Shown here: positions 10,330 to 64,000 of the stretch, piece by piece
Position numbering within the stretch: the stretch's first letter is position 1
Layout: each line of letters opens with the position of its first letter
From: a bacterium
GTDB lineage: Bacteria; Hinthialibacterota; Hinthialibacteria; Hinthialibacterales; Hinthialibacteraceae
DNA: 64,000 nt
Reading direction: 5' to 3'
Assembly: GCA_963663405.2 (NCBI GenBank)
Contig: CAXXSM010000149.1
Coordinates: forward strand, 1 to 64,000
Made by a program: the position numbers and the translations under genes
Notes under the pieces: generated by a model
Databases searched by the model: none
Seen by the model: the letters and a program-made list of their open reading frames with translations, nothing else
What the model was told of the DNA's origin: nothing

Positions 10330-10350
10330 TGTGTGAAAGGAGTGGATCCG

Positions 10351-13300: not shown

Positions 13301-13986
13301 TCGCGCAGGCGAACACGCCCAGTGACGATCGATCTTCGAATGAAAACGCGCAAGAAGCCGAATCGAATTCTCAAACCCAAAGAGAAGGGAATGCACAACA
13401 ATCCGAGCGGAATTCTCAATCGCAGGGTCGGGGAGGCGATCCGGAAAGAGACAGGCAAGGGGATCAGGAAGCGAACGCCTCCAATGGACAGAATCCACGA
13501 GGGGAACGGAATTCTCCGAATGAAAATGAACAGTCCAGCGATTCAGGAGAAAGGCGCATGGGCGGCGGTGGTGGCCCGGGAAATCAGAATCGATCCTGGC
13601 CTATGCCGGGAGATCCACGGACAGGTGAATTTATGCGGCGGTTCATGGAATCTGAATACCGGGAATGGGATAGCGCGCTGCGGAGCGCGGAAAATCTCTT
13701 GCCGGATTCGGCTTCGTTAAAAGATCAGTTGACGGAGATTCGGGAACAGATCGAAGACCTTCGTGGCGAATATCGCCGCAACCGGCAGCCTCCTCAATAC
13801 GATCTCTTTTTAAACTATATCGCCAACCCATTGTTGAAAACGGTGGAGGAATTGGAAGCGGAGATTGAAAAGCAATCGGCGCCCGGCGAATTTGCCCTAA
13901 TGGATGAAGGAAGCGCGCCTGTGAATTATCAAAAGCAGGTCGCTGAATATTTTAAGGCGCTTTCGGAATCGGAAACAGAACGGTAA
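10351..13986 (+). CDS. Large membrane protein with Ig-like domains and long coiled-coil/Q-rich tail (DUF4175-like)
   Basis: Three N-terminal TM segments, PELENRLVSA, YHYPDYLGL, DDFGI, long Q/E/R-rich helical region, terminal P..YQKQVAEYFKAL. ATG at 10351 follows an AAGGAG RBS; the track start is 10333. Confidence 0.8.
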   Translation: MSSNPQIPKELQFKIQQVADQYYCVNLFRSWARFGAVTLGLVAVFVLLLMGAVWLGISREWFYLLFAAAEIFIVWRYLVFPLRKPLTLQQIALYMEEHYPELENRLVSAECFGAGREKVSSRWMLEQFFKETDGATRRISFFELLDSDILVKQFIKAAAVLCVTALVAVGFFKFWAPDFSSISIPSIAGETLPNFTVEPGTIKIRKGESQIVLCKGKRNEKVSIRWRMEDRPWQAQTMEPSDSDQVYYHTFPNLQSDVEYQVEYGKIQSPVYTIHTWIPPEVESIDLTYHYPDYLGLEPKTFPHSGNINAIEQTRVRFGVWVNKELREAALVFGNGERLALTTEEDYKWIGDFLVQENGNYTIELIDLDGETNEYKPEYEILVQYDRAPEIKIDFPRRDLQVTMLEEAPFEFHVRDDFGIKAFGIQYEIAGKEDAVRIPLQTQDEIVMEAVGEHQLNLEDLDLEVGDLITWTIWVQDFKPDRSDFEELGDPYFLEICPFRRLFERAMSNAGAGEQQGGSQGGAGGNQDALSQKEIIIATWNLRRQSKDLKEEEYIEKRTKIVEAQTQLLTRYLNSNSQQFQNRALQNQLTQAMKQAIEALEKAEYSDPGASLSEAAVHEQTAYRLILKLQPDRSQIAQRQQSGQMGQGEGQQRNRPEIDELELNRRRNFYEEERQTQRRLEETDESLDQIKELARRQKNISDEISKLISERKTTETGEEQKRRLEKLQEEERRNLERLDETAGEMISQNTSNPQTREAMRRLNDTRRQMNRSLENLEGEQLQEARAASSKALSELETIERQLRQYSQDAASKRMMELQDAMRSAIAKEEKLLDRLKELQDNQNAPTLSLDPDLEEKKESLRNDKEELADEFMELIAQAGALSERSKQSQPLMSRNLGDWLRRTSQKGIVEDIQQEQKLPLIQYGVWEKALEQENRILEKMNEVSTELDRVAESITSGGREAMEMALNRLRELTQPNENSAEGQIAQANTPSDDRSSNENAQEAESNSQTQREGNAQQSERNSQSQGRGGDPERDRQGDQEANASNGQNPRGERNSPNENEQSSDSGERRMGGGGGPGNQNRSWPMPGDPRTGEFMRRFMESEYREWDSALRSAENLLPDSASLKDQLTEIREQIEDLRGEYRRNRQPPQYDLFLNYIANPLLKTVEELEAEIEKQSAPGEFALMDEGSAPVNYQKQVAEYFKALSESETER

Positions 13987-34704: not shown

Positions 34705-35799
34705 ATGGTGATAGATATGAAAATTGGATGGGTAAATATCAGTTGTCTATTCATCATTATTGTTTGTCTATTTGATATCGTTTTAGGGGATGAATCAACT
34801 GGACTTTCTGCACGTTCAACGAATGACAGTAATCCTATCGATCTTTGGTATGGATCTAAACAGCGTTTTGGCGATCTTGGAAAGCCGCAGCGCTGGATCA
34901 ATGTTCTAGGAAATCTGAAACAGGCTTCGAAATATAACAAACTTACATTTTCACTAAATGGAGGAGGCGAACGTAATCTATCTCTTGGATGTGATCTTCA
35001 CCGCCTTGCGCGGGATGGGGATTTTAATGTTGAACTGAGCTGTGATGAAGTGAAAGTTGGAACGAATCAATTATCTCTTACCGCCTATTCGAATGCAGGT
35101 AAAACATACAAGCGCGCTGTTACACTTCTTGTGAAGAAGAACCAAAAATGGCCGTTGCCATATGAGATTGATTTCAGTAAGGTGGAGAATCTGCCGAGTG
35201 TGGTTCAGATTGTTGATGGAAAGTGGTGTTTAACCCACGCAGGCGTTCGGACGGTTGAACCATATTATGATCGTGTGCTGAGCATGGGAGATCAATTATG
35301 GACAAATTATGAAACCACTGTAAGGTTGACTGTCCATGATTTTACTCCACCAAAGAAAGGGCCTCCTACGTATAATGTCACTCATTTTGGAGTCGCGTTC
35401 CGGTGGCGGGGGCATACACAGGATGGTCTGCAACCGAGCCGGAGATGGTATCCCTTGGGAGCGCAAGGGGAATTTTTAGTGCGGAACAATTTATCGGATT
35501 GTCAGTATCGGATTTTGTTTGGGGGTGGAAAAAATTGGGAGCCGGTCTATTCACCCAAAAGAAATCTCATTCAACTTGACAAACCAATTCTCATCAAAGC
35601 GCAGGTAACGACAATGGATGATGGGCGTTCTCGATATCGATTCAAACAATGGAATGAGCAGGAGTCTGAACCTGAGGTATGGGATGTTGAGGGCTATGAA
35701 GATCCTTCAACCGATTATCCATCAGGTTCGTTATGTTTGGTTCCCCATAATACTGATGTTACGATTCATCATGTGCGGATCGTCTCGCTGAACGATTGA
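34705..35799 (+). CDS. Secreted hypothetical protein (Ig-like plus concanavalin/LamG-like domain)
   Basis: Long ORF co-oriented with the GH106 gene, N-terminal hydrophobic signal, beta-rich sequence. Confidence 0.65.
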   Translation: MVIDMKIGWVNISCLFIIIVCLFDIVLGDESTGLSARSTNDSNPIDLWYGSKQRFGDLGKPQRWINVLGNLKQASKYNKLTFSLNGGGERNLSLGCDLHRLARDGDFNVELSCDEVKVGTNQLSLTAYSNAGKTYKRAVTLLVKKNQKWPLPYEIDFSKVENLPSVVQIVDGKWCLTHAGVRTVEPYYDRVLSMGDQLWTNYETTVRLTVHDFTPPKKGPPTYNVTHFGVAFRWRGHTQDGLQPSRRWYPLGAQGEFLVRNNLSDCQYRILFGGGKNWEPVYSPKRNLIQLDKPILIKAQVTTMDDGRSRYRFKQWNEQESEPEVWDVEGYEDPSTDYPSGSLCLVPHNTDVTIHHVRIVSLND

Positions 35800-35962: not shown

Positions 35963-38182
35963 ATGAGCTTAGTCATATTCTTTGCAATCAAGGAGTCAAA
36001 AATCGTGAAATGCAATACAGCGATTATTGGAGTTTTACTATTGTTTTCGGCTGTGATTGGCGCCACGTTTCCGTTGCATATCTTTCCGCAGAGCGTCCAG
36101 GGCGAACTCGTTTTTGTGGAGCCGTTTGAAACGAATGTGATGGATAGTGGTTGGGATATCATCGATAATGGGGGAGCGGTTGCGGAGATATTGGGACCCA
36201 TCGCGCCGGGTGTGGATGGTGGTTCAGCCGTTGAAATCAGCGTGAATACGCCGTCAGATGTCTCATTGAATCACGTGCAGTTTTACAATGAATCGATTCC
36301 CCTTCCCGAGAATTCCACACAATACGATTGGCGTGTGACTTTTTGGATTCGGACCGAGACCGCGCCATTCACCATTCGGACAATCTTGGCTATGGGGGAA
36401 AGTCCCTGGAGTGGAGTGGATGTGGACTACATAGTAGAAACGGCGGGGCAATGGGAATTCGTGGATGTCATTTTGGATGCAAGTGATTTTCTTACGACCG
36501 ATCCCCTTTTATTGACGCTGCATATGGGGAATTCTGGAGACTCGAATGGAGATAATGAGATTTGGATAGACGATTTGAAATTGTATCTTCTAAGTCCAAT
36601 GGAAATGCCCACTCCAACACAAGAACCGGCTCCTTCCCCTGTTCAAACGGTTTCAGCGTGTGAACCAGGATATGACTTGGTATATATATTTCATTGTAAG
36701 AGTCAAGATGAGTATATTGAAATTCCAGGGGGTTATGTTGTGGGCGCTCCGGGCGGACTTGTGGAAGTGACAACAATCCCAGATGATCCTGACAGCGCTA
36801 GTGATATGAGGGGTGTCAAAATTACAGCCAGTCCGGGAGAGATATCATTCCTGCAGTTTGACACAGTCGATATTGGAAATGATATGGCGTTCATCCGGGC
36901 GTATGTGCAGTCGGCTGGTTCGGGCGCGCAAGTGGCGCTGGCGTCATTGGACGGTTCGATGGATCGATCGATCGCCACTGTCATTCCGAATGACAGTGCA
37001 ATTTTCAAGGACCGCTATCACTGCATGCCTTTGATCTTTGATCCACCGGGAACATCGGTGGCTCCCGTTTTTCAGGTCGCTAATTCTGGGGTGAACGATG
37101 TAATCCTCTATCTCGATCGGGTGGAAGTGTACCGGATTTTGGAAGATGGCTATGTGCCTAGCGCATTTCTGCGTGGAAACATGCTCGGTCCAATTCCCAC
37201 AAATACTCCGGTTATTGCACCAACCGAGATTCCTACTGTTCCCCCGATCCAAACGCCTACTGATACTATTACGCCAGTTCCACCGGAAGTCGCTGTCAAT
37301 AAGATCGCGGGCTGTCAGATTTTTCCTGCGAATAATATTTGGAATGCGCGTGTCGATCATTTGCCGGTCGATTCCCGATCGGACGCCTATATTGAATCCA
37401 TTGGTCCAAACACCGGATTGCATCCAGATTTCGGGAGTGGAACATGGGCGGACGCGCCGATTGGAATTCCTTATATTGATGTTCCTGGAGATCAACCGCT
37501 CGTTCCGGTTACATTTGAGTATGCTGATGAAAGCGATCCCGGCCCCTATCCCATTCCCGCCGATCCACCGATCGAAGGAGGGCCCGATAGCGCGGGAGAC
37601 CGGCATATTCTCATGATCGATCGTGATAATTGTATATTGTATGAACTCTATTCCACCTATCCGAATAATGATGGAACATGGCGCGCGGGTTCAGGCGCGA
37701 TTTTTGATCTTCAGTCCAACGTACTCCGGCCGGATGGATGGACCTCGGCGGACGCGGCGGGATTGCCCATTTTACCAGGACTCGCGCGGTATGAAGAAGT
37801 GGAAGCGGGTGAGATCACTCACGCTCTTCGTTTTACTTGTGCGCGAACAAGGCGGGATTATGTTTGGCCGGCACGGCATTTCGCTTCGCAACGAACGGAT
37901 CTGTCAATTCCCCCGATGGGACAGCGGTTCCGGTTGAAATCTTCATTTGATGTTTCTTCGTATTCCTATCAAATCCAAGTGATCCTCAACGCATTGAAGA
38001 AATACGGTATGATTTTAGCTGATAATGGAAGCGACTGGTATATCAGCGGCGCGCCCCATGAAGGATGGGATAACGATCAACTGGTGAGTGAATTACGCAC
38101 TGTGCATGGATCGAATTTCGAAGCGGTGGATGTATCCAGTGTGATAGTGGATTATGATTCTGGAGAAGTGGTAGCTCCATGA
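35963..38182 (+). CDS. Secreted modular protein: CBM-like domain, shared unnamed domain, P/T linkers and conserved uncharacterised C-terminal domain
   Basis: Signal peptide; ...EIWIDDLKLY; P/T linkers; C-terminal FPANNIWN, YADESDPGPYPIP, GDRH, DAAGLPILPGL.RYEEV, HALRFT, YGMILADNG. Confidence 0.75.
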   Translation: MSLVIFFAIKESKIVKCNTAIIGVLLLFSAVIGATFPLHIFPQSVQGELVFVEPFETNVMDSGWDIIDNGGAVAEILGPIAPGVDGGSAVEISVNTPSDVSLNHVQFYNESIPLPENSTQYDWRVTFWIRTETAPFTIRTILAMGESPWSGVDVDYIVETAGQWEFVDVILDASDFLTTDPLLLTLHMGNSGDSNGDNEIWIDDLKLYLLSPMEMPTPTQEPAPSPVQTVSACEPGYDLVYIFHCKSQDEYIEIPGGYVVGAPGGLVEVTTIPDDPDSASDMRGVKITASPGEISFLQFDTVDIGNDMAFIRAYVQSAGSGAQVALASLDGSMDRSIATVIPNDSAIFKDRYHCMPLIFDPPGTSVAPVFQVANSGVNDVILYLDRVEVYRILEDGYVPSAFLRGNMLGPIPTNTPVIAPTEIPTVPPIQTPTDTITPVPPEVAVNKIAGCQIFPANNIWNARVDHLPVDSRSDAYIESIGPNTGLHPDFGSGTWADAPIGIPYIDVPGDQPLVPVTFEYADESDPGPYPIPADPPIEGGPDSAGDRHILMIDRDNCILYELYSTYPNNDGTWRAGSGAIFDLQSNVLRPDGWTSADAAGLPILPGLARYEEVEAGEITHALRFTCARTRRDYVWPARHFASQRTDLSIPPMGQRFRLKSSFDVSSYSYQIQVILNALKKYGMILADNGSDWYISGAPHEGWDNDQLVSELRTVHGSNFEAVDVSSVIVDYDSGEVVAP

Positions 38183-38511: not shown

Positions 38512-38675
38512 TTCAACATTTTCTGAATCACATTTCTTATATCATTCATAACTAATGGTAGGGTTTTTACTACCATAAAATGGATACTTTTCCTACTAGA
38601 CATGTAGTGAATATATCCATACAGTTTCTACACTGCTCTACGAGCAGAGAATCTATTTCTATGAAAGAGAGAAGA

Positions 38676-40202
38676 ATGATGAAAAGAGTTTTGCTAGTTG
38701 TTCTTGTGGGGGTGTTATTTATCACTTCTGTCTATGCAGATCGGAGCCAGTACGATCCAACGAAAACACAGTTCGCCCTGCCTTTGTTGATTGACAATCC
38801 GGCGTTAGGGCCGATTGTTGTGGATGGCATCATCCATACAAGCAGGAATCAAGATGACAGTGAAGCCTGGGAGTCCGCGTACCGCTGGACTGTGTCGCCT
38901 GATTCCTCGTTGGATGACGGTGTCGCTTATGGGCATATGTCGCTAGGGGATCCACCGGAAAGCAGTGATGATCTGAGTTTTACGATCTACATCGGATATG
39001 ACAGCAAAAACCTCTATGTGGGTGTGTCAGTCAGCGATTTCGATAATTATGATGACGACGCGGCGGAAGGATCGTACAACGAAGGAAACACCTGGGACGA
39101 CGACAGTGTGGAGATTTTTGTTGATGGCGATAACAGTAATTATCCCGAACGGGATACAACGGGAAGCAATCCTGACGTTGTCGATACCGGTGGACAGTAT
39201 GTAATCACATTTAATAATGCAAGCCGTGACGCGGAAGCGGGCAGTCCCGGATTCGGGCCGGACGCGGCCTGGTACGCGAGGACGGAATTTACAGATGTTG
39301 GTTACGATGCGGAATTCCGGATTTCGTTAAGCGAGATCGGGAATCCCCAGCCGGGTGATATCATTGGCTTTACCGTCGCAGTCAACGATGATGACGACGG
39401 CGGCGCCAGTGAGCGGCAGATGATTTGGGCGGGTGAAACCCACGTCGAAGCAAGTTATGGGAATCTCGTGTTTGGTGGACGTACGATTGTCGCGCCGAAA
39501 GTCTCGACAGCGCCGACGATTGATGGCGTGATAGATCTAAGTGAATATCCCGGCGCGGTTGAACAGATTGTCAATCAGTATACCGGCAATACTTCTACTG
39601 AAGACGACGCATGGGAAGCCGGTGATTTAGAAATGTCGGCATGGGTCGTACACGATGAGGATTATATCTACGTGGCGGTCGATGTGCTGGACGACGCGAT
39701 TGTAAACGATACGGTTTCCACGCCTGGATCAATGGGGGGAAACACCTGGGATGATGATGGAATCGAAATCTATTTTGATTCGGATGAAACAAACCGGCAT
39801 AACTATTTTGGCCCCGCTCATCTGCCCCGGCATGAAGGCAATTACAACACCACCGCGAATAATTCGATCGGCGCCCCTCCGACAGGCCCTGTTTATGGGG
39901 ATGATCCAGACGCTGATTATTATTCCTTAACGACATTGACGGATGACGGTTATCAGTTGGAATTCCGGATCAAGAAACTGGCGTTGACGATTCCCGGCGA
40001 AGATGTGTTGATGGATACGTTTGGATTCAATTTCAGCGCGAACGATGATGACATCGTAGATCCTGACGGGACCACCGGTGACCGGGACGCGCCTGGCGGA
40101 CAATATCACTGGAACGGTACCGCGAATTCCGAACGGAGCTACGGCTTTTTAACATTGTCACCTGAGGAATTCACCGCCGTTCAGGAATGGGCTCTTTATT
40201 AA
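38676..40202 (+). CDS. Secreted tandem CBM9/DOMON-like sugar-binding protein with C-terminal TAVQEWALY motif
   Basis: Signal MMKRVLLVVLVGVLFITSVYA; two repeats of DG....W..A / YD..NLYV.V.V.D / TWDDD.VEIF.D / GY..EFRI / GF....NDDD. Confidence 0.8.
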   Translation: MMKRVLLVVLVGVLFITSVYADRSQYDPTKTQFALPLLIDNPALGPIVVDGIIHTSRNQDDSEAWESAYRWTVSPDSSLDDGVAYGHMSLGDPPESSDDLSFTIYIGYDSKNLYVGVSVSDFDNYDDDAAEGSYNEGNTWDDDSVEIFVDGDNSNYPERDTTGSNPDVVDTGGQYVITFNNASRDAEAGSPGFGPDAAWYARTEFTDVGYDAEFRISLSEIGNPQPGDIIGFTVAVNDDDDGGASERQMIWAGETHVEASYGNLVFGGRTIVAPKVSTAPTIDGVIDLSEYPGAVEQIVNQYTGNTSTEDDAWEAGDLEMSAWVVHDEDYIYVAVDVLDDAIVNDTVSTPGSMGGNTWDDDGIEIYFDSDETNRHNYFGPAHLPRHEGNYNTTANNSIGAPPTGPVYGDDPDADYYSLTTLTDDGYQLEFRIKKLALTIPGEDVLMDTFGFNFSANDDDIVDPDGTTGDRDAPGGQYHWNGTANSERSYGFLTLSPEEFTAVQEWALY

Positions 40203-40324
40203 TGACCGCATGATTGGATAGCCAAACACGGATCACTCTTGTATTAACATCTCGCGTTTTATGTGTGTAATAAACAAGGGATCCGAGGAGACCGTGATGG
40301 ATCTCCATCATGAGAAAACAAAAT

Positions 40325-40364
40325 GAGGTTCGGGCGATGTCCCTCAGAGGCGCGCCCGAACCTC
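40325..40364 (+). promoter_or_regulatory. Strong intergenic hairpin without a U-tract
   Basis: Perfect 12-bp stem gaggttcgggcg/cgcccgaacctc between the CBM9 gene and the pilin-like gene. Confidence 0.55.
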
Positions 40365-40483
40365 CCTCCCCTAACAACCATCAGACTGTTAAACGTGTAC
40401 AACGTAAGGTGAATGAGGACAGTAAGAAAACGCGTATGTTTCAATGGGCGATTCGAAACAACGAAAGGCATGGACGGAACAGA

Positions 40484-41143
40484 ATGGTTTATATGCGATC
40501 AGCGAAAAAGGGATTTACGTTAATTGAATTATTGATAGTGGTGGCGATTATTGGTATATTAGCCGCGATCGCGGTGCCGAATTTTCTAAATGCGCAGATT
40601 CGCGCGAAGATGGCGCGCTGTTTCGCCGATATGCGTTCGGTTGGAAATGGTATCGAACAGCTGCGGCTAGATAAGGGTGTACTGTTAATCGACTGGTGGG
40701 ATGACGATGCGCAATGGGGGCAGGAACGGTTGACGAATATCTTTAATCTTGTCGGCGCCGGGCCGGATTTTGAAGCCCGTGGAAAAGACGCTGTCATGGC
40801 TCCGTTGACCAGTCCGGTGGCGTATTTGTCTTCCATCCCAACCGATCCATTCCAGACCGGGCCGGAATTCAATTATCCTTATTACTATTATTTAGACAAC
40901 GATCCGGAAGGATCGGGTGAAGATCACGATTTCCCGGTTTACCGTATACAATCCGCCAAGCAGTATGGCACTTCACCTCTTCGCGAAGGGGAATGGGCCT
41001 TGGGTGGAATCGGGCCGGATAAAGCGTGGTACGAGACGGTGGGTGGAGATAATGTAAGTGATTTGCGGGGCGTTCATTACGATCCCTCCAATGGGCTGGT
41101 CAGCCGGGGTGATATCATGCTGACATCGCGAGGGATCAATTGA
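40484..41143 (+). CDS. Type IV pilin / GspG-like protein with prepilin N-methylation signal
   Basis: KKG|FTLIELLIVVAIIGILAAIAVPNFLNAQIRAK; PLTSPVAYLSSIPTDPF; GPD; YDPSNGLVSRGDI. Start 40484 or 40493, not 40310. Confidence 0.9.
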   Translation: MVYMRSAKKGFTLIELLIVVAIIGILAAIAVPNFLNAQIRAKMARCFADMRSVGNGIEQLRLDKGVLLIDWWDDDAQWGQERLTNIFNLVGAGPDFEARGKDAVMAPLTSPVAYLSSIPTDPFQTGPEFNYPYYYYLDNDPEGSGEDHDFPVYRIQSAKQYGTSPLREGEWALGGIGPDKAWYETVGGDNVSDLRGVHYDPSNGLVSRGDIMLTSRGIN

Positions 41144-41256: not shown

Positions 41257-44200
41257 ATGGGTGCGAATTTGTATACCAATGAATGGCATTCAATCCACAT
41301 GATATTCTACTATTCTATAATTTCTAATCGGAAAAGACTCTTCATCTTCTATTTGATATTTGTTGGTGTTTTATCTTGTCACGCAAATTCTTCTTGGCGG
41401 TATTGGAAAGTCACGGATGGATTGAGCGAATCATACTGTCATAGCGTTTCAATCGGTTACAATGGCAGTGTCTGGGTAAATCATGGGATCACAGGTACCA
41501 TGAGCCATATCACAGGATATCCCCTACGGAAAAAAGACGCCGTTTTTAACTTATCCAGTCCAGGGCCCTATGTGAAAGTGCTCCAAGACCATATTGGAAA
41601 TCTATTTTCTGTCTTCATGGGGAATCCTGGGGGATTTCAGCGATATCAACGTGAAACATGGGTGAAATATCCTGTGCAGGATATCCAACTAGTAAATTGG
41701 CTAGTCGCGGCGGATTTTCCATTTATTTCCACGGGCGCAAATACCATCCTTTATCTTTTACCCAAAAAAGTAATGGAATTCGACGCCGTTTCTTTAGAAA
41801 GTCGTATGGTCCTATCGTCAGAACAGACCGGTCTTGGTTCTTTTATCCATCTTACGGAAACATCCCATTACCCAGTCTGGATCACCGCTGAACGAGGCGT
41901 TGTGCGGTTGGAATCAGGAGAATTAAACCAGCTTCCCTATCAATGGAAGACGTATCCCCTCCCCGAATCGATCCAGGTCAAGCGATTACGGGAACCTTAT
42001 ATCGATCATCACGGCGCTTTGTATATCGTAGGAGACAGCGAAAGCAGCGGCGATCGCGTCTTGTTGGAATTTATGGATGGATGTTGGAAAGAGATCTATC
42101 AGAGCGATCGTCTAGAGCGGGGATGGCGGGATGTGGATGGCGTTTTGTGGATCCAAAAAGGCTATGAACGTTTGATGCGAATTCATGACGGGCGGGAACA
42201 TCTAATTGAGAACAAAAACGCTTTGTCCGGACAAATCTATGATATAAAAACACAACCGGATGGTGTCGCATGGATCGCCACTTCGCATGGACTCGCTCGA
42301 TATTCCCCCAGCGTTTGGCGGACTCCTTCCAGCTTGATTGATGTGAAAGACCTTGCGCTCACCATTTATGAAGATCCTGCAGGACGTCTTTGGTGCGCTT
42401 ATCGAAATATATTAGCGTTGAAGGAAAATGGACAGTGGGAAGTCTATCCGTTTGATTCAAGAATGGGTCCGACTTTTCATTTTCAAACCGATACATTGGG
42501 TATGCTAAGAGATGGCCGGCTCGCGATCGGTGTGTTTTGTCCGGATCGTTGTTACTTTTTACCCGAGCGCCGTCAATTCCAACTTGTCCATGAGGATGAG
42601 CGCAATTCGTATCAATATTTGGCTCCCCATCAGGATGGATTGATTTGGTTGGTTGTGCATGATACGAAGCGGGATATACATAGTCTAATGAGTTTTGATG
42701 GGAAACAATACGAGGAAATTATTCCCGACCTGAATTGTTTACAAGCCAATGATGTTAAAGATATCTATCGAGATCAGAAGAACCGGATTTGGATTGGGAC
42801 GACCGCCGAGTTGGCGCTCTATTCTGATGGGCGCTTCCAGCCGCTGGATGCGATGGAAACGTTTCACAACCAGGGGATATTCTGCATCCATGAGATCGAA
42901 CCGGGGACGCTTTGGTTTGGAGGGCGGAATACAATTGTTCAATATAAGGGAAACGAATGGTCAATCGTGCGGAGTGATATGGACGCTGTCCGATCGATGA
43001 TTACCGCTCAGGATGGCAGCATATGGATCGCGTCGCAAAGTGGTCTGCATCGTTTTTATCAAGGGATTTGGACTGTATATACGGATGAAGACGGATTGCC
43101 TGACATTGCCGTATACAACGTTTTTGAAGATCGTGATGGCGTGATCTGGGCGGGAACGAGCCGGGGAATCAGCCGTTATCATCCGGAATCGGACAGGGAT
43201 TGTCCGGATACAAATATTTTTATAGAAGAAAACTTATCAACAACGCCACCGGATGGCCAAGTGCGAATTGTGTTTTCTGGGGTGGATAAATGGAATCAAA
43301 CCCAGCGGGATCACATTCTCTATTCCTACCGGCTTGACCGGCGGCCTTGGTCCACGTATCGCCCAGCGACCTACGCTTCGTTTTCAAACCTAGCTCCTGG
43401 ATCGCATATGTTTGAAGTGCGGGCCATGGATCGGAACCGGAATGTAGATCCCGTACCCGCCTTGTTTGAATTTACGGTTCTACAACCTTGGTATCAGAAA
43501 CTTTCAGTCCAAATTACGTTCTGTGTCTGTATTGGCGCGATTATTATTCTTGCGCGGCTTCTTATCCATCGCCATCTTTGGCTTGAAAAGTTGGTGCAGG
43601 AACGAACCGTTGATTTGATCGCGGCGAATCAACAGTTGCACAAAGACGCAGAGGAATTGAAACAAGCGGAAACCCAACTCCGTTCCATGGCATCAGAATT
43701 AATTCTTTCAGAGGAACGCGAACGGCGCCGGATCGCTTCTGGACTGCACGACCGGATCGGTCATGCGCTGGCGTTCATCAAGATTAAGATTGGACAGTTT
43801 TTATCGACTTTGACTGATGAAGCGGACAAAGAAAACTTACATTCCATTCAGGGTGTGATTGATCATGCGATCAAAGAGACTCATGTATTGACGTTTGAGT
43901 TAAGCCCACCTATTCTGTACGAGTTGGGATTGGAAAAAGCCATTCATTGGCTGGTGAAAGAGTTTCACAAAATGTCGGGTGTGGCGCCTGTATTTGACGA
44001 TGATGGTCTCCGGGCGCCGTTGGAAGAAAATGTGCGTATTTTTCTATTTCAAGCCGTGCGTGAATTGTTGATGAATACTGCGAAACATGCGAAGGCGAAG
44101 CGGGTTGCGGTATCGATTGTTCATTTACCTGAGACGATCGTTATCACGATTGAAGACGACGGTATAGGATTTAGTCCTAGTTCGAATCAAACGCAGGCTC

Positions 44201-44343
44201 ACAAGGGATTTGGATTGTTCAGTATTTCTCAGCGGCTGCAGCATATTGGGGGGGATTGCCGGGTTGAATCGCATGCGCAACAAGGGACGCGTATCGTTTT
44301 GACCGCTCCTATCCGTAGAACGGGGGATTGTTCCGATGGCTGA
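41257..44343 (+). CDS. Sensor histidine kinase with extracytoplasmic beta-propeller and Y_Y_Y domain, HisKA_3 (NarX-type) core
   Basis: DGL....V..I.ED..G.IW.GT..G repeats, NL.PG.H.FEVRAMD, PWY + TM, ERERRRIASGLHD.IGH, ELLMN.AKHA, IEDDGIGF, GFGLFSI.QR, GTRI. Confidence 0.92.
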   Translation: MGANLYTNEWHSIHMIFYYSIISNRKRLFIFYLIFVGVLSCHANSSWRYWKVTDGLSESYCHSVSIGYNGSVWVNHGITGTMSHITGYPLRKKDAVFNLSSPGPYVKVLQDHIGNLFSVFMGNPGGFQRYQRETWVKYPVQDIQLVNWLVAADFPFISTGANTILYLLPKKVMEFDAVSLESRMVLSSEQTGLGSFIHLTETSHYPVWITAERGVVRLESGELNQLPYQWKTYPLPESIQVKRLREPYIDHHGALYIVGDSESSGDRVLLEFMDGCWKEIYQSDRLERGWRDVDGVLWIQKGYERLMRIHDGREHLIENKNALSGQIYDIKTQPDGVAWIATSHGLARYSPSVWRTPSSLIDVKDLALTIYEDPAGRLWCAYRNILALKENGQWEVYPFDSRMGPTFHFQTDTLGMLRDGRLAIGVFCPDRCYFLPERRQFQLVHEDERNSYQYLAPHQDGLIWLVVHDTKRDIHSLMSFDGKQYEEIIPDLNCLQANDVKDIYRDQKNRIWIGTTAELALYSDGRFQPLDAMETFHNQGIFCIHEIEPGTLWFGGRNTIVQYKGNEWSIVRSDMDAVRSMITAQDGSIWIASQSGLHRFYQGIWTVYTDEDGLPDIAVYNVFEDRDGVIWAGTSRGISRYHPESDRDCPDTNIFIEENLSTTPPDGQVRIVFSGVDKWNQTQRDHILYSYRLDRRPWSTYRPATYASFSNLAPGSHMFEVRAMDRNRNVDPVPALFEFTVLQPWYQKLSVQITFCVCIGAIIILARLLIHRHLWLEKLVQERTVDLIAANQQLHKDAEELKQAETQLRSMASELILSEERERRRIASGLHDRIGHALAFIKIKIGQFLSTLTDEADKENLHSIQGVIDHAIKETHVLTFELSPPILYELGLEKAIHWLVKEFHKMSGVAPVFDDDGLRAPLEENVRIFLFQAVRELLMNTAKHAKAKRVAVSIVHLPETIVITIEDDGIGFSPSSNQTQAHKGFGLFSISQRLQHIGGDCRVESHAQQGTRIVLTAPIRRTGDCSDG

Positions 44344-44998
44344 AAACTCAGTTCGTATCATTATTGCGGACGACCATGATATCATTCGTCATGGATTAAG
44401 AATCTTGTTGGATCAGATCGAGGAGTACGATGTGGTGGCGGAGGCGGATAATGGACGCCGCATCTTTCAGCTCGCGCGGGAGACGCAGCCGGATATCATC
44501 ACGATGGATATCACCATGCCGGAACTCAATGGGATCGAAGCGACGCGGCAAATTCTGGCCGAATGTCCAAACATCCAAATCATTGGACTGACTATGCATC
44601 CCAACTTTTTTTTCGCGGAGGAGATGTTTCTGGCGGGGGCGAAAGGGTATGTGCTTAAATCGAATGTCATGGAAGAACTCATCCCCGCTATTCAGACTGT
44701 CTTAAAGGGGGAAACGTATGTCAGTCCATTGATCAAAGATATCGAAACTGATTTTTTCTCTTCATCAACGCCACCGTCTGATAAATTGCTGTTTAAAACA
44801 TTGACCGCGAGAGAGCGGGAAGTTTTACAGCTGATCGCAGAAGGAAAATCAACAAAAGAGATTGCTTCATTAATCCATATCACCACGAAGACAGTAGAAA
44901 AACACCGTCATTTTGTTAAAAAGAAACTGAACATTCATGCAACAGCGGATTTTGTTAAATTCGCGTTGCGAATGGGATTGACCTCATTGGAATGCTGA
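44336..44998 (+). CDS. NarL/LuxR-family response regulator
   Basis: IIADDH..IR.GL, MDITMPELNGIEATR, GAKGYVLK, LTAREREVLQLIAEGKSTKEIA; overlaps the kinase stop. Confidence 0.95.
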   Translation: MAENSVRIIIADDHDIIRHGLRILLDQIEEYDVVAEADNGRRIFQLARETQPDIITMDITMPELNGIEATRQILAECPNIQIIGLTMHPNFFFAEEMFLAGAKGYVLKSNVMEELIPAIQTVLKGETYVSPLIKDIETDFFSSSTPPSDKLLFKTLTAREREVLQLIAEGKSTKEIASLIHITTKTVEKHRHFVKKKLNIHATADFVKFALRMGLTSLEC

Positions 44999-57563: not shown

Positions 57564-59237
57564 CTATTGATCCAGGATTTTCTTCTCATCGGGGAGGCGG
57601 GGGCCTGCGTGCCCGTCGGGAATCTGGGAAAGTGAAATCGAATTTAAATTCGAGGATGCGCCGATCTCAAAGCAATAGGCCCACCAATTCAGAGCCGCGT
57701 TCATAACTTGATCACAATCATAATAACGATTGCGTCCAAACATCGTTCCATCACTATAGATGTCGTATGCCCAAGAGTTTGGATCGTATGTGATAAAATA
57801 CTCTCCATCTTCCGACCAGCCTTTTACAATTAAAAAGTGTCCGCTGTCGTAATTATAAAAGCGGTCGAAATAAGGTTGGCGGCTGTAGTCGATCCATCTC
57901 ATCTCCATGCAAAGCAATACAATGTTTCCTCGTTCAAGAATTTGATCGATATCCGTCCGGGACGAGACAGAATGGATTACGAAGGGAGTATTATATTTTT
58001 TTAAAGCTTTTTGGATATCGGATGTATACCACCAGCCGTTGTTACGGCGGTTGACATCCCGGATCGTATCGACGGGGATATCTTGATTTGAATACCATTT
58101 GATGGCCATATGAGTCGATGTTGGCCCGCAGTTGTTGTCCGACGCTGGGCCTGTGCCCATTTGGGTTTGGTACCACTCATAAGGCCGGGAATTATGTTCT
58201 GAAGCGACCGGATTGACCGTAAGCAGCATCTCTCCGAAAACATCGCCGAATTGCGCGAAAATCCATGAATTTCCACTATTCAATCCACAGACGGTTCCAG
58301 AACCGTCAACCGTGGCGGTCTGGTTGTTACCGGAACTCCATACATAATTGAGATCTTGAATGGTGTTTTCTGAAGGATCGTACGCTACGCCTGTTAAGAC
58401 CGCTCTTTCATCGATGTCTACTTCCAGCCGTGAGGGATCGATCTCGATTTGCTCGATGAGTAAGGGGCTGGGTGTGTTTGTGGGTATTTCCGTAGGAACA
58501 GGTGTGGATGTTTGCGTAGGTTCTGGGGTGGGTGTTGTTGTGGGTATCTCCGTAGGAACAAGTGTGGATGTTGGTGTTGGCTCTGGAGTGGATGTTGGAT
58601 TTTCCTCCAGTGGAGTGAGGCTCACAATCTCTGGATCGTCCACATCACCGTCGAGAAATTCTGTATGATAATACCGTTCCGGATCAAGCAGGTAATATTC
58701 GAAATTGTCAAGATAGACCGTTAATGGTTCTGTATCGCTCGTGTTGATAACTTGAATCAACGGTTGGAAACCGGTCGATGGAGGGATAAAAATATCCGCA
58801 AGGCGCCGGTATTGATTTTCAAAATACGCTTCTCGCGCAGGGGTGAGAGTCGATACGAAACTATTTTCCCCTGCGTCAATTGTCGCGAGGGTGATCGATG
58901 CGTGCGGCGCGTCCGCCCGGACAGAGCAGCGGATCAAGGCCATATTCTCCGTCGTTACAACGGGGCCGAATATCATGACGCCTTCGCCGGGATCGGCCTC
59001 AATGATTAATCCCCATCCATCTGTCGCGCCTTGAAATGTGTTATACTTTGGAAGGACTCCAAGAGAAATTGCTGGTTCCGGGTAGGCGCCAAATCCGGCG
59101 CCCATAAAAGAGACGCCTATTTCGTCCAATGAATCGCCGGAAAAATCAAATTGGACGTGTTCTTCTCCCATGCTTAACGGTACATAGAACAAAGAAATCA
59201 ATACGGCAAGTATGAATCGAACAGCGTCTTTCATCAA
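57564..59237 (-). CDS. Secreted protein: shared unnamed domain, P/T linker, Big_2 Ig-like domain and C39-like cysteine peptidase
   Basis: Signal peptide; PTSTPEPT linker; WSSGN...ATVDGSG.V.G (Big_2); Q...NNCGPTS, GHFLIVKG, YDPN (Cys-His-Asp). Confidence 0.8.
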   Translation of the reverse strand: MMKDAVRFILAVLISLFYVPLSMGEEHVQFDFSGDSLDEIGVSFMGAGFGAYPEPAISLGVLPKYNTFQGATDGWGLIIEADPGEGVMIFGPVVTTENMALIRCSVRADAPHASITLATIDAGENSFVSTLTPAREAYFENQYRRLADIFIPPSTGFQPLIQVINTSDTEPLTVYLDNFEYYLLDPERYYHTEFLDGDVDDPEIVSLTPLEENPTSTPEPTPTSTLVPTEIPTTTPTPEPTQTSTPVPTEIPTNTPSPLLIEQIEIDPSRLEVDIDERAVLTGVAYDPSENTIQDLNYVWSSGNNQTATVDGSGTVCGLNSGNSWIFAQFGDVFGEMLLTVNPVASEHNSRPYEWYQTQMGTGPASDNNCGPTSTHMAIKWYSNQDIPVDTIRDVNRRNNGWWYTSDIQKALKKYNTPFVIHSVSSRTDIDQILERGNIVLLCMEMRWIDYSRQPYFDRFYNYDSGHFLIVKGWSEDGEYFITYDPNSWAYDIYSDGTMFGRNRYYDCDQVMNAALNWWAYCFEIGASSNLNSISLSQIPDGHAGPRLPDEKKILDQ

Positions 59238-59843: not shown

Positions 59844-60903
59844 TTATAAACACGAATAGTGTTTCCCAGGAATCATGGCGTGTCCCCAGCCGAGTATTTC
59901 TTCATTCTTGAGATCGTCCCGCATTTTTAGAAAGCCCGCCTGCGCCAATCCTCCCGCTTGAAAATATACCGCGTCGATGTCGGAAGTGTATTTAGGGAAG
60001 TGACCGAAACCGCCATCTTCGTTCCGGCATGAGAGAATCCACTGCACGGCTTTTTTATAACAGGCGGCAATCCGTGGATCTTCTGGATTTCCCAATTGAC
60101 GAAGAATAAAGAGCGCGTCAAAAGCCGCATGCACATCCCAACTGGGAGGATGAATTCCGGTCCAGGAGCCGTCTTTTTGTTGGAGTTCTAAGGTTCGTTC
60201 GATCATGGGTTTCGCCTTGGGTGTGGGAGCCCCGACGAGGCGGTAATAATGCGCGGCGTGGAACGTGGATGCGACATGATTACCCAGGTAGCCGTCTTCT
60301 TTCTGTTCTCGTTTTAAATACGCCCGCAGTTTTTCATCGAATTCTTTGGGCATGCGTTTTCCAATCGCCGTATAGAAATAGGGGAAGAAACTGGTCGTGT
60401 ACAATGGGAGATTCTCGAATTCTTTCGGTTCAAAGAAATATTCAACGACCGGCATAGGATCGTATTTTGGTTTTTCACCCAATACCCGGAGCGCGACAAG
60501 GCTTTGGGCGGTGTTGTACAGTTTGGCGAGGGGGGAATTCGGATCCATTTCCCCGGTTTTGTGATAGAAGGCGCCGTCGGGTTTCTGGCTCGAATAGAAA
60601 AATTCCTTTGTCGCTTCCGGATAGGGAAGCGGCCATCCAAAGGTTTCGCTCAGCAGCGTCACATACGTTGGCGCGGCGATCCCGGAAAGCTGTGTGTCAG
60701 AGTAACCTTTATAAGCTGGATCGATTCCCGGTTGAAAGGAACCGTCTTTAAGCGCCGTTTGTTGAAGAAAACGTCTGAATTCCTTTGAGAATCGTATCCG
60801 GCTTCGTTTCTGTATCAGCGTTAGAACGCGTGATTCCAAAGAGTCCCAATCCGGCGCACATAGCAGTCAGTTTGATGAAATTCCGTCGATTGTTTGTTAT
60901 CAT
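59844..60903 (-). CDS. Tat-exported prenyltransferase/squalene-cyclase repeat (alpha/alpha barrel) protein, frameshifted near the N-terminus
   Basis: QW-like repeats Q.PDGAF, Q.EDGY, QQKDGSW, C.NEDGGFG in 59844..60839. A Tat leader MITNNRRNFIKLTAMCAGLGL starts at ATG 60903 (AGGGG RBS) and joins the main frame if one base is removed near the A4 run at 60768-60771. Confidence 0.75.
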
Positions 60904-61131
60904 GATTCGAATCCCCCTAACAGCAGTATCTATCTTCTCTTTTTGAAAATATACGAAAAAAGGGAATAAATCCAGAGCGCATTCCGGATTAGATTGAAAT
61001 CGAATCTATCTATTATAGGATTCATCGAAAATAATCCTGTAAATAAATCCTCAAATTGCTGTTGAATCGGGAGATTCGGATGTATGTGAACCATGAAAAG
61101 TCTCTATTAATTTTATTTTCTCATTCTTTTT

Positions 61132-61170
61132 CTTAATCTGATTCTAACTAATATCTAACACATATCTAAC
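61132..61170. promoter_or_regulatory. Phased direct repeats (11-bp period), putative winged-helix regulator operator
   Basis: cttaat/tctaac/tctaac/tctaac at 61132, 61143, 61154 and 61165; further 11-bp pairs at 61328/61339 and, inverted (gttagg), at 61504/61515. Confidence 0.5.
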
Positions 61171-61665
61171 AAAATTAATTTTTTCTTAACATAACCTCTT
61201 CATTAATAATCATCCAACCGGAGAATTTTATTGATAATTCATGATTCAATCGATTGAAAATATGATCTGTAAACCTATGATTATTAGGAATTTACTGAAA
61301 TCAGAGGCAGCAAGTTCAATTCTTGTATTTAATAATTTTCTAACATAATCATCACTTTTAGTTAAATATTTTCCATACTATATATATAAACAACCATTCT
61401 TTTTATCTAAAAATCCTTTACTATTAAGCTGATTTTAGAAAGAGCATTCGATACTGGCCGTTTAGGGTATCGAGAAAGGATTTATGTGGAGCGGCCAAAG
61501 AATGTTAGGATTTTGTTAGGGAGGAGGTGAAATCAGGTATAAAGGAGTACTTCTCGTTTTAGTGATCCCTATAAACAGTCTTAGGAATAGAAGAGGGATT
61601 AGAATCTTTGAGAAAAACACGAATCAATAAGATGAGGCTTTATTTTAAAAAAGGAGAAAGTATCA

Positions 61666-63129
61666 ATGAAAAATAAGTTTTTTTTCATCTTTGCAGTAGC
61701 TTCTGTAATTTCTTTATCACTGATGGTCAATGCGGGGTACGCCCAAGTTTTCTTTGAGGATGACTTCAACGATGGCGGAACTGCGGGCGCTGTAGAAAGA
61801 GGTTGGGAATTTATTGAAAATGAATTCGTGACCGAAGTGGGCAGTTTTTTCGTCATTGCGCCGGAATGGCCCGTAAGAGAACCTAGCTCCGACACAGGTA
61901 TCCTCAATCCTCCTACAGCGGATGGCACGGCATCTGACGGTGGTTTTTTGATTGCCGACTCCGATGCGGGAGACGGTTCCGATGACATTGGTTCCCAGTC
62001 TGATATTTACGCTATTTCTCCTGTTTTCAGCACTGAAGGCGCCAGCGAAGTCTGGTTCCACGCCGACACGGAAATTGAAATCAATAATAATGGGGAATGT
62101 GTGATGGAATTCATGGTCACCGCAGACGGTGGAGAAACTTGGATTCCCGTCTTTCAAGGAATTGAACCAGAACGAGTCATTGACTCATTCAACGGTGGCG
62201 GTGTCGGCCGGGACCGGACGGATGGATGGCCGGTATTAGGCAGCGCGTCTCACACAAAATCCTTTGGAGGAATTCATGGGCGTTGGCATTTACAATTGCC
62301 TGATGAAGTTGTGAACAAACCTGAAGTTCGATTTCGGATAGGATATTATGAACCGGCGGACGCTTGGTGGATCACAATGGATAACGTTGTTGTCGACGCT
62401 TCACCTCCCCCCATGGGATCGGAAGTGATTCTGACTGAAGATTTCGAAAATGGCATTCCCGAAACTTGGTCCAACACGACGGCGAAAGAAACTCCAACTG
62501 GTGAGGATCAGCTCTGGGACACAAAGCCGATCTGGGACGAAGATTTCGATGAACCTTACAAGTTCAGTGAAAGTATGGGATTAGCTGTTAATATCGACAT
62601 TGTCCGCCAAGCGGAATCTTTTGATCTTGTTCTCGATCTTGACAATCCCGATGAATATTTTAATCCAAAAGGCGTCTTGGATGGCCGTTGGGTTCTTATG
62701 TTGGCCGGTCAAGGCTATGCGATGTGGCAGGAAGGCGATTTAGACCAGCTGAATGGTGTCAGTGAAGGAGCGAATTTAGATACGCCGGTTCTGGATTGCA
62801 GCAATTACACAGGAGTTTATCTCGCTTTTGATTCAGAATTGCTCGTAGGAAACAGCTCGGCGCGATATGAAGTGTATGTCAGCGCTGATGGCGGCGCCTC
62901 CTTTGATCGATTATTCACTTACACCGAAGCCTTAATGAACTATGAAGAAGCCCCTTACTTCGACCGTCACTATCTCGAAGCGCCCCAGGCGGCCGGTCAG
63001 AGTGAAGTTATTTTCCGTTTTCAAGCCATCGGGGAAGATCCTGGTGAAATGGAAGGATTTTGGGTTATTGATAACGTCAGCATAACCGCTGATTCCGGCA
63101 CACCCGTTACCGATTGGGTCTTATATTAA
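61666..63129 (+). CDS. Secreted two-domain MAM/cleaved-adhesin-like beta-sandwich protein with C-terminal TPVTDWVLY motif
   Basis: AAGGAG RBS; signal peptide; two repeats F.EDF...W, SP(V).....V, V.ADGG..W/F, V.FR, W..DNV.V/I. Confidence 0.8.
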   Translation: MKNKFFFIFAVASVISLSLMVNAGYAQVFFEDDFNDGGTAGAVERGWEFIENEFVTEVGSFFVIAPEWPVREPSSDTGILNPPTADGTASDGGFLIADSDAGDGSDDIGSQSDIYAISPVFSTEGASEVWFHADTEIEINNNGECVMEFMVTADGGETWIPVFQGIEPERVIDSFNGGGVGRDRTDGWPVLGSASHTKSFGGIHGRWHLQLPDEVVNKPEVRFRIGYYEPADAWWITMDNVVVDASPPPMGSEVILTEDFENGIPETWSNTTAKETPTGEDQLWDTKPIWDEDFDEPYKFSESMGLAVNIDIVRQAESFDLVLDLDNPDEYFNPKGVLDGRWVLMLAGQGYAMWQEGDLDQLNGVSEGANLDTPVLDCSNYTGVYLAFDSELLVGNSSARYEVYVSADGGASFDRLFTYTEALMNYEEAPYFDRHYLEAPQAAGQSEVIFRFQAIGEDPGEMEGFWVIDNVSITADSGTPVTDWVLY

Positions 63130-63166
63130 TTAGATCGTTGCGGTGTGAAAAGTTTTGAGTGTTTAG

Positions 63167-63201
63167 AAAGGGATGCGCCGTTGATCTGGCGCATCCCTTT
63201 T
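63167..63201 (+). terminator. Intrinsic terminator-like hairpin between the motif-bearing gene and the pilin-like gene
   Basis: aaagggatgcgcc-(8 nt loop)-ggcgcatcccttt-t. Confidence 0.75.
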
Positions 63202-63330
63202 GACGAGAATCAAGCGGTTCCTCTTTTATTAAGATTATTGTGGACATTTCTATTAACATTTTTGTTTAGTATATTTAGAAAATTAAATAGATTGCCGTTT
63301 AATCCTTTTTATTCATACAGGAGACCGAGA

Positions 63331-63966
63331 ATGAAAAACAAAGTAGTTAAAAGGGGATTTACTCTCATTGAACTTCTCATCGTGGTCGCCATTATCGGAA
63401 TTTTGGCGGCGATCGCCGTGCCCAATTTTTTGAACGCCCAGATCCGGGCGAAGATCTCCCGGTGTGTGGCGGATATCCGGATGCTGAATCAGCAAGTCAC
63501 GATTTTTCATATGGATAAAAACCGGTGGCTGATCGACGGCAACGATTGTGATGGCTCATCAGAATGTTGTTTCGAAGGTGAATATATCGGGAAACATCCA
63601 AATACATCGAATGTTTCTGTCCTGCAGGGCGCCAATCATTTTGATGGGCGTATTTATCAACCTTTAACTACTCCCATCGCGTACATCAGCAGTATTCCCA
63701 TTGATCCATTCAGCGATGGTTTGTTCTATTCCTATGAAGATTGGGATTGCTCGAATAATGGAGGTTTCTTCGGGCTTTTAGCGGCGACCGGTCCGGATGC
63801 GGATAATGGCGATTGGCATCCCGATCAGCGGTCCATTGTATACTATGGGACAAACGGTCTTGCAAGCAACGGCGACATCTGGTACATCTGGCTGTTCAAA
63901 CCTGGTTATACCAATACCCAATATGAAACCTACTTTAAAAAATCCGGTTGGAGCGCTCAATATTAA
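63331..63966 (+). CDS. Type IV pilin / GspG-like protein with prepilin N-methylation signal
   Basis: AGGAG RBS; KRG|FTLIELLIVVAIIGILAAIAVPNFLNAQIRAK; PLTTPIAYISSIPIDPF; TGPD; YYGTNGLASNGDI. Confidence 0.9.
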   Translation: MKNKVVKRGFTLIELLIVVAIIGILAAIAVPNFLNAQIRAKISRCVADIRMLNQQVTIFHMDKNRWLIDGNDCDGSSECCFEGEYIGKHPNTSNVSVLQGANHFDGRIYQPLTTPIAYISSIPIDPFSDGLFYSYEDWDCSNNGGFFGLLAATGPDADNGDWHPDQRSIVYYGTNGLASNGDIWYIWLFKPGYTNTQYETYFKKSGWSAQY

Positions 63967-64000
63967 GCCGGTCTTATCTCTTCTATCTGCCGCTAGACCG

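Follow-up and report, generated by a model that had tools for sequence, protein, structure and literature searches.

Exported proteins with a short C-terminal tail and orphan pilins of probable GspG-like fold are encoded side by side above chance in a Hinthialibacterota genome

We analysed a stretch of 64,000 nucleotides (nt), hereafter the window, at the start of a contig of 193 kb (CAXXSM010000149.1) in the draft genome of a bacterium of the family Hinthialibacteraceae, phylum Hinthialibacterota (assembly GCA_963663405.2; 8.44 Mb, 170 contigs, 82% complete). The subject of this study is two two-gene cassettes on the forward strand of the window, in each of which a gene for a Sec-exported protein with a characteristic nine-residue C-terminal tail is followed by a gene for a prepilin. 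An earlier note on the window had placed these cassettes at 38676-41143 and 61666-63966 and had read them as instances of a recurrent pairing of a secreted binding protein with a pilin of about 215 amino acids (aa). Direct reading of the DNA bears out the description of both cassettes, including the protein ends T.V.[DE]W.LY and the pilin lengths (216 and 211 aa). Moreover, we observed that genes for tailed proteins and pilin genes are neighbours above chance in this genome, and that this holds for a minority of the members of either family.

In cassette 1, the gene of the exported protein T1 (38676-40202) lies in an open reading frame (ORF) that spans 38580-40202; the start at 38676 (MKRVLL...) matches the starts of homologues and gives a signal-peptide-like N-terminus. 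T1 belongs to the CBM9 family according to Pfam (CBM9_1, 1.4e-31; 110.3 bits against a cut-off of 23.4), with two matching stretches, and is therefore predicted to bind sugars. Its tail TAVQEWALY is encoded at 40173-40199, directly ahead of the stop codon at 40200-40202, and fits the genome-wide logo of such tails given below. A spacer of 290 nt follows, which contains a GC-rich hairpin at 40325-40364 (12+4 pairs, with no U-run behind it; the fold of 40203-40492 has an energy of -86.9 kcal/mol, z = -2.8). The pilin gene P1 (40493-41143) begins at a probable start at 40493 (MRSAKK|GFTLIELL) within the ORF 40310-41143. It encodes a prepilin of 216 aa with the leader MRSAKK, an N_methyl match of 36.9 bits and a putatively GspG-like fold in the AlphaFold2 model, whose predicted local distance difference test score (pLDDT) was 91.6.

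In cassette 2, the gene T2 (61666-63129) encodes a Sec-exported tandem beta-sandwich protein, modelled with two sandwich domains at a pLDDT of 91.7; the last four residues of its tail fell below 50. The best Foldseek matches of T2 were reelin repeats and tandem CBM22/CBM51 modules. No Pfam domain exceeded its threshold in T2, and the choice-of-anchor J model (NCBIfam NF038128) reached 26 bits over residues 373-473, short of its cut-off of 30, so that T2 was not assigned to that family. The tail TPVTDWVLY is encoded at 63100-63126 and the stop codon lies at 63127-63129. The 201-nt spacer (fold z = -2.5) carries a terminator-like hairpin with a 15-bp stem and a T-run at 63167-63201, which is also present in orthologous pairs. 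The pilin gene P2 (63331-63966; ORF 63145-63966, probable start 63331) encodes a prepilin of the same family as P1, of 211 aa, with the leader MKNKVVKR and an N_methyl match of 34.8 bits.

The tail form found in both exported proteins, T-x-V-x-[DE]-W-x-L-Y-stop, recurs throughout the genome. In a census of every stop-to-stop ORF, W-x-L-Y-stop ended 60 of the 17,538 ORFs that were 100 aa or longer, compared to 1.2 expected from the frequency of the motif inside proteins. It was the top C-terminal pattern of the genome, followed by W.VY (21) and W.LF (20), and the logo of the tails reads T/V-S/P-V/I-x-x-W-A/S-L-Y. Further counts were made on a crude, non-overlapping set of 7146 genes, in which gene calls, starts and signal peptides were assigned by simple in-house rules. 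In this set W-x-[LIVMF]-[YF] ended 117 genes, hereafter tagged genes, with V or I at position -7 in 100 of them. A signal-peptide-like N-terminus was detected in 90 of the 117 tagged proteins versus 31% of all genes, one crude rule being used for both. When 62 tagged proteins (T1, T2 and 60 random picks from 94 eligible) were scanned against Pfam, CBM9 was found in 8, LamG_3 in 6 and LRR in 4, and sulfatase, cohesin, dockerin and other domains occurred singly.

To follow the tail in relatives we used the DNA pattern V-x-x-W-x-L-Y-stop, which catches part of the tails, with the reversed pattern as the control; the relatives compared are kin and thus not independent samples. The pattern was enriched in all 19 genomes of the family (16-43 matches versus 1-8 for the reversed control) and also across most of the order and class, and showed no enrichment in the outgroup, six small genomes. 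Tail-bearing homologues of T1 and T2 came from metagenome-assembled genomes labelled Omnitrophota, 'bacterium' or Hinthialibacter. At the position of the tail, homologues from Verrucomicrobiota, Pirellulaceae and Chitinophaga have a domain of about 80 aa ending in FYRV, a PEP-CTERM end or an end of the type IX secretion system (T9SS) type. A tripartite C-terminal sorting signal of the LPXTG, PEP-CTERM or GlyGly-CTERM kind is absent from T1 and T2, which stop directly after W-x-L-Y, and the PEP-CTERM homologues of other phyla show a hydrophobic helix and an RRRR end.

Two side observations concern these homologues. Those of the CBM9 and beta-sandwich proteins in Verrucomicrobiota (P0009-P0120 and P0267-P0290; loci L003, L010, L013 and others) end in a domain of about 80 residues with ...[FY]YR[VL]..., which may be another unnamed C-terminal sorting domain. 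Pirellulaceae homologues carry PEP-CTERM at the very site of the W-x-L-Y tail of Hinthialibacterota.

P1 and P2 share an identical N-terminus of 33 residues together with the motifs P.DPF, GPD and Y..[ST]NGL.S.GDI, as the earlier note had pointed out, and these features turned out to belong to the whole family. The genome contains 144 ORFs with a prepilin motif, and the family comprises about 125-144 paralogues. The 33-residue N-terminus is identical in 21 pilins genome-wide, the first 24 residues, residue 1 aside, are common to 113 of the 144 ORFs, and the C-terminal motif Y..[ST]NG..S.GDI occurs in 94-104 of them. Because the N-terminus and the motifs are family-wide, the likeness of P1 and P2 is a family trait and no sign of a special relation between the two. 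In DNA searches, 23-206 copies of the pilin N-terminus were found in each of 34 relatives of the class, where in distant relatives the pattern catches part of the pilins, and 0-2 copies in six outgroups.

Both proteins are prepilins by profile and sequence (PF07963, 36.9 and 34.8 bits for P1 and P2, cut-off 21.2; TIGR02532, 37.6 and 38.1 bits for the two window pilins, cut-off 16.3; processing site K-G|FTLIELL). They fall outside the GspG family as the profiles define it: TIGR01710, whose cut-off is 88.85 bits, gave 46.3 and 49.9 bits, with residues 1-58 of the profile alone matching, and PF08334 (GspG) had no match in P1 or P2 at E <= 0.01. The solved folds closest to P1 were EpsG (Z 7.7, root-mean-square deviation 2.5, 98 aligned residues) and PulG (Z 6.7, root-mean-square deviation 3.7, 118 aligned residues), at scores where Z < 8 is common for unrelated pairs, and a Foldseek search of P1 against PDB returned nothing at E <= 0.001. 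The earlier note had likened the pilins to the DUF1559 type. This did not stand, as neither P1 nor P2 matched DUF1559 at E <= 0.01, N_methyl was their sole Pfam match and the fold appears GspG-like. A side observation concerns the DNA of the family: the first ~100-130 nt of the region coding for the mature pilin show ~80-88% identity among paralogues and across genera. Such 5' repeats could drive recombination and explain a fast turnover of the neighbours upstream.

The genes for a filament machine lie elsewhere. Genome-wide we found 9 secretin, 7 T2SSE and 2 prepilin peptidase (Peptidase_A24) matches, and no match to any of the three on the 193-kb contig, in agreement with the earlier note, which had seen no pilus assembly genes nearby. 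Secretin and ATPase genes form several loci, which implies more than one machine. Thus, the idea in the note that all pairs plug into one shared machine holds in part: the invariant N-terminus fits shared machinery encoded elsewhere, and the several secretin and ATPase loci speak against a single one. Five pilin-like ORFs are long, and one of them lies on contig C29 near secretin and ATPase matches. We also considered a PDZ-bearing, GspC-like reader within the secretion loci and set it aside, since all 11 PDZ_2 matches are on contigs that lack secretin and prepilin-peptidase matches; PDZ_2 and T2SSE share a contig twice (C79, ~44 kb apart; C132, ~16 kb apart). In the open-access literature that we searched, no paper described the tail or the pilin expansion. 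In the passages on pili of a genomic description of the phylum (PMC9324843), Tad pili are the only ones mentioned, and its supplements might list pilin genes.

We next give the counts behind the adjacency of the two families. The earlier note had made its proposal depend on how often the two gene types meet given their abundance. Counted in this way, tagged genes and pilins formed 11 neighbour pairs in any orientation, compared to 3.6 ± 1.9 in 2000 label shuffles, of which 3 reached 11. The next downstream gene on the same strand was a pilin for 6 of the 117 tagged genes, where the background of 0.94% predicts about 1.1. Untagged signal-peptide genes showed no such enrichment beside pilins (75 versus 68.7 expected). 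Around the tagged genes, 15 pilins were found at a distance of one gene, 8 at two and 3 at three, with about 3.7 expected per distance, and pilins were the largest recurrent family within three genes. This sharp decay indicates a local rather than a regional effect. The arrangement was also detected in two relatives. In G010, a genome of another genus of the same family, a pilin motif lay 45-161 nt downstream of 4 of the 43 tail-pattern sites, and in G031, which belongs to a different family within the class, one lay 115-148 nt downstream of 4 of 36. By the reversed control, about 4-7 of the sites counted in each of these genomes are expected to be false.

Of the two cassettes, the second has been kept. 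Orthologues of T2 and P2 are adjacent, by DNA match, in five relatives (G019, G006, G009, G010 and G014), and P2 orthologues also stand directly behind a tail-tagged gene in G008, G011 and G013, so that at least 8 of the 19 family genomes have the arrangement. When stretches of 5 to 18 kb around the T2+P2 pairs of eight relatives and of the present genome were compared, the only families found across genera were those of the pilin and of T2; another two flanking families were common to both genomes of one genus only. Judging by these comparisons, cassette 2 is a conserved and isolated two-gene unit across genera. Two details of the orthologues deserve mention as side observations. In G010 (locus L155, G010:C3:125500-132500) the T2 orthologue is a tandem duplicate of 485 and 527 aa, both copies with the tail TVDKGTPVTDWTLY, ahead of a single P2 orthologue. 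Among the P2 orthologues (L160-L168) the C-terminus is conserved as ...GWS-x-[QED]-[FY]-stop, which resembles the cargo tail and is not identical to it.

The earlier note had counted a structured spacer as part of the cassette. Folding confirmed a strong GC hairpin in each of the two spacers, but the spacer sequences are unrelated and the hairpin proved to be general to tagged genes. No meaningful alignment of the two spacers was obtained, and we rejected them as one shared element. The cassette-2 hairpin keeps its position in six genomes while its stem sequence differs, and 7 of its 12 consensus pairs are changed on both sides. Hairpins with an energy of -18 kcal/mol or below within 110 nt, counted as strong, were present downstream of 32% of tagged genes versus 11% of other genes, whereas upstream of pilins that follow untagged same-strand genes their frequency was 10% versus 13% in controls. 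The hairpin was therefore also rejected as a part of the pilin gene. The structured spacer is best understood as a terminator that belongs to a strongly expressed tagged gene, and the hairpins suggest that tagged genes are strongly expressed, individually terminated units. Neither of the main spacer hairpins was flagged in consensus terminator scans, which returned one weak terminator-like site per region, at 40802 inside P1 and at 63102 in the last codons of T2. In several of the hairpin-bearing pairs only ~20-35 nt separate the hairpin from the pilin start, and three pairs (two in this genome, one in G010) have gaps of 7-27 nt without a hairpin.

How could these observations be brought together? 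We tentatively propose, with a probability of roughly 40%, that the pseudopilin is a cargo-specific factor for the export or display of the binder encoded upstream of it, and that the tail is a general label. One partner would be a Sec-exported, non-enzymatic beta-sandwich protein of carbohydrate-binding type with a free nine-residue tail, T-x-V-x-[DE]-W-x-L-[YF]-COOH, and this tail would serve as an address or docking label on roughly 100 unrelated exported proteins. The other partner would come from the more than 100 GspG-like pseudopilin paralogues, in which an invariant N-terminal assembly helix is combined with differing heads. The neighbouring pseudopilin could act as a cargo-specific subunit or adaptor which, by means of the common helix, would enter a type II secretion or type IV filament machine encoded elsewhere, and would there help to push out the upstream-encoded binding protein or to hold it at the cell surface. 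The reader of the tail would presumably be a component common to all tagged proteins rather than the adjacent pilin specifically. If the pilin start comes so soon after the hairpin that no room is left for a promoter, the pilin may be made by read-through and thus at a lower level. The data give no sign of import rather than export. The closest fold neighbours of the pilin belong to an export system, and a Pfam scan of 29 window ORFs revealed no gene for a TonB-dependent transporter, a SusC- or SusD-like protein or another outer-membrane importer.

A number of observations weigh against a cargo-specific role of the pilin. First, about 90% of the tagged genes and of the pilins are unpaired, which leaves about 10% of either family paired, and the tail, as its distribution indicates, is a genome-wide label that is independent of a pilin neighbour. 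Neither a fusion of a pilin with a cargo domain nor a tail-bearing pilin was found in the genome. Second, cassette 1 is, as far as the sequences compared tell, not conserved. P1 orthologues occur in at least nine family genomes, and at none of the nine loci was a tagged gene found upstream within 1.5 kb; matches to CBM9 and to P1 in family genomes are on separate contigs or far apart. Among 17 complete CBM9 genes with the tail on public contigs, 15 of them with at least ~0.7 kb of downstream sequence, no downstream pilin was seen within 0.7-4 kb, and at one further CBM9 locus a pilin lies 235 bp upstream. A closer relative may provide a hint of the conservation of cassette 1, as homologues of T1 (71%) and P1 (82%) are both recorded on a contig of 5462 bp. 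Of eight pilin and tagged-gene neighbourhoods examined in G010, just one, the cassette-2 orthologue, maps to a pair in the present genome. Third, on a FastTree phylogeny of 125 pilins from which the invariant first 33 residues had been removed, the 14 paired pilins required 14 state changes. Finally, a strong terminator-like hairpin lies in the gap of 6 of the 9 tagged-then-pilin pairs of this genome, and these hairpins suggest that the genes of such pairs are at least partly separated in transcription. The recurrent pairing claimed in the earlier note thus survives as an excess over chance here and in two relatives and as the conservation of cassette 2; as a rule for the two families it does not, given the unpaired majority and the lack of conservation of cassette 1.

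The pilin tree served for one further question. With shuffled labels the number of changes was 12-14 (five values), so the paired pilins do not cluster, and we rejected the possibility that they form one subfamily.

The explanation that fares best after the cargo-specific one is that there is no physical coupling between the two products at all, and although we find it doubtful, it has to be taken seriously. Both families would simply be abundant in glycan-foraging regions, some pairs would persist by co-regulation for a common substrate or by inertia, the pilins would have a different function, for instance in adhesion, uptake or periplasmic anchoring, and export of the tagged proteins would be independent of them. 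The unpaired 90% of both families, the turnover of most pairs between genera, the scatter of paired pilins over the tree and the terminator-like hairpins, which split most pairs and accompany tagged genes in general, all speak for this explanation, and sulfatases, a GH106 rhamnosidase, BNR and FG-GAP proteins abound in the window. On the other hand, mere regional abundance is hard to reconcile with an enrichment that is confined to immediate neighbours and gone by three genes to either side, with the lack of enrichment of untagged signal-peptide genes beside pilins, with the maintenance of T2+P2 across genera while all flanks change, and with a pairing rate of about 10% that is alike in three genomes.

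The cargo-specific role can also be extended to the two families as wholes. More than 100 pseudopilins and about 100 tagged proteins would then be the halves of one filament-based secretion or display apparatus (a 'pilosome'), in which W-x-L-Y would be the universal hook and the pairs would represent cargo-specific adaptors. We consider this unlikely; if it were true, the apparatus would be comparable in logic to the cellulosome or the T9SS. An even less probable version makes the tail a docking peptide and the pilin family its reader, so that W-x-L-Y would hook onto a conserved face of the pseudopilins and the protein would be displayed on the filament or expelled by it, in a C-terminal equivalent of the type IVb secretion signal or of the pairing of dockerin with cohesin. 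Here the tail and the pilin expansion co-occur throughout the class and are both missing from the six outgroup genomes, the poorly predicted last four residues of the T2 tail are possibly free, the conserved P.DPF and Y..NG..S.GDI motifs could form a common site, and the binding of TcpF to TcpB provides a precedent (PMC9565799). However, the co-occurrence is among kin, and the counts of the two features do not go together across genomes (for example, 163 pilin sites and 4 tail sites in G023, 75 and 36 in G031). Moreover, nothing ties the tail to the pilins in particular, and a secretin, a receptor in the outer membrane or a protease could equally be its reader. A model of the complex between the P1 head (residues 36-216) and the second CBM9 domain and tail of T1 (residues 285-508) returned a score of 0.00, which is 'no answer': as a single job without controls it is evidence in neither direction.

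The earlier note had interpreted the cassettes as interchangeable pairs of pilin and binder on one retractile type IV filament that captures and imports glycans, as an analogue of SusC/SusD, and this we regard as very improbable: the double CBM9 of T1 and the carbohydrate-binding-like folds of T2, the sensor kinase of polysaccharide-locus type next to cassette 1, the glycan-degrading genes around both cassettes and the common pilin N-terminus would suit it, but the nearest folds, EpsG and PulG, are type II secretion pseudopilins that drive export, the secretin and ATPase loci are several, an importer is missing from the ORFs scanned and cassette 1 is not conserved.

The remainder of the window provides the genomic setting of the cassettes. 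Cassette 1 abuts a gene for a propeller sensor histidine kinase (41257-44343, forward strand; Reg_prop, Y_Y_Y, HisKA_3 and HATPase_c), as had been stated before, and the end of this gene is overlapped by the gene for a LuxR-type response regulator (44336-44998, forward strand; Response_reg and GerE). According to Pfam, the window ORFs around the cassettes encode two sulfatases, a GH106 rhamnosidase and FG-GAP, BNR and DUF2961 proteins. No Rfam family matched any part of the window at gathering score. For 61000-64000, public sequencing runs comprised three contig-level runs from one study, at shares of 0.31, 0.13 and 0.00, and no RNA run. Two genes for secreted-looking proteins (34705-35799, 364 aa; 35963-38182, 739 aa) immediately precede cassette 1, and their products have neither a Pfam or NCBIfam match nor a tail. 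Further away, genes for a MoxR-type AAA ATPase and for DUF58, BatA/VWA and DUF4159 proteins at 5269-10329 form a Bat-like ('aerotolerance') operon, downstream of which two large proteins are encoded (10333-13986, with a weak DUF4175 match, and 13989-16427). The 12-14 kb stretch of the window has an unusual AT skew of 0.30. On the reverse strand, 57564-59237 encodes a secreted protein in which Pro/Thr-rich linkers accompany a Big_2 domain and a C39-like peptidase domain. This gene is flanked by a gene for a TypA/BipA-like GTPase, as judged from its sequence, and by a prenyltransferase/terpene-cyclase-like gene at 59844-60839.

In comparison with known systems, the closest likeness of the window pilins is to GspG (Vibrio cholerae EpsG, 4lw9; Klebsiella oxytoca PulG, 5wda), with which they share the class III signal peptide G|FTLIE and the long N-terminal helix; EpsG and PulG are also the solved folds nearest to P1. 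In addition, their motifs resemble what we take to be GspG signatures (DPW-type, G.DG and DDI-type). They differ from GspG in being about 70 residues longer and in scoring below the sequence cut-offs, with a match over the first 58 residues, and the family differs in its more than 100 orphan copies per genome, which lie away from secretion operons. Expansions of orphan prepilin-type genes are familiar from Planctomycetota, a polysaccharide-degrading lineage in which many pilins of the DUF1559 / H-X9-DG type are encoded; the pilins of the window lack a DUF1559 match at E <= 0.01, and their heads appear GspG-like instead. With the SusC/SusD loci of Bacteroidota the cassettes have in common that paired genes lie near glycan-degrading enzymes and a propeller/Y_Y_Y sensor, and that one partner is predicted to be a glycan binder, like the surface glycan-binding partner of those loci. 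In contrast to them, neither a TonB-dependent transporter nor a SusD fold occurs among the 29 window ORFs, and the other partner is a pilin.

The tail is best compared with the sorting signals of the PEP-CTERM/exosortase, T9SS C-terminal domain and LPXTG/sortase systems. Like them it forms the very end of many exported proteins that are otherwise unrelated, and it takes the place of the PEP-CTERM or T9SS-type ends that homologues from other phyla have. Unlike them it measures just nine residues, lacks both a membrane helix and a basic cluster, and ends in a free aromatic carboxy-terminus. We know of no processing enzyme for the W-x-L-Y tail, nor of a cultured member of the phylum. Should the tail and the pilins prove not to be linked, the tail would still stand as an undescribed sorting label.

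How cargo is recognised by type II secretion and related filaments is, to our knowledge, a long-standing open question, and the type IVb cases TcpF and CofJ are the only ones we know of in which a linear signal has been defined. Enterotoxigenic Escherichia coli reportedly offers the second of these with CofJ and the minor pilin CofB. In V. cholerae, the flexible N-terminus of TcpF hooks the minor pilin TcpB, and TcpF is secreted by the type IVb pilus (PMC9565799). As described there, the system resembles the cassettes in that a secreted non-pilin is encoded with a pilin, a short flexible terminal peptide acts as the signal and a filament machine is involved; it differs in that the signal is N-terminal and the pilus operon encodes one cargo and one minor pilin. 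In the present genome the putative label is C-terminal and present on ~100 proteins, of which ~10% are encoded beside a pilin. A phylum of polysaccharide degraders combines a short linear C-terminal label on about 100 exported proteins, a pseudopilin expansion of more than 100-fold with one common assembly helix, and a linkage of the two that is reproducible and in part conserved. If the linkage is functional, it would also explain the orphan prepilin expansions of several glycan-degrading phyla, and the pairs would provide tractable natural combinations of cargo and pilin in which recognition by type IV filaments can be studied.

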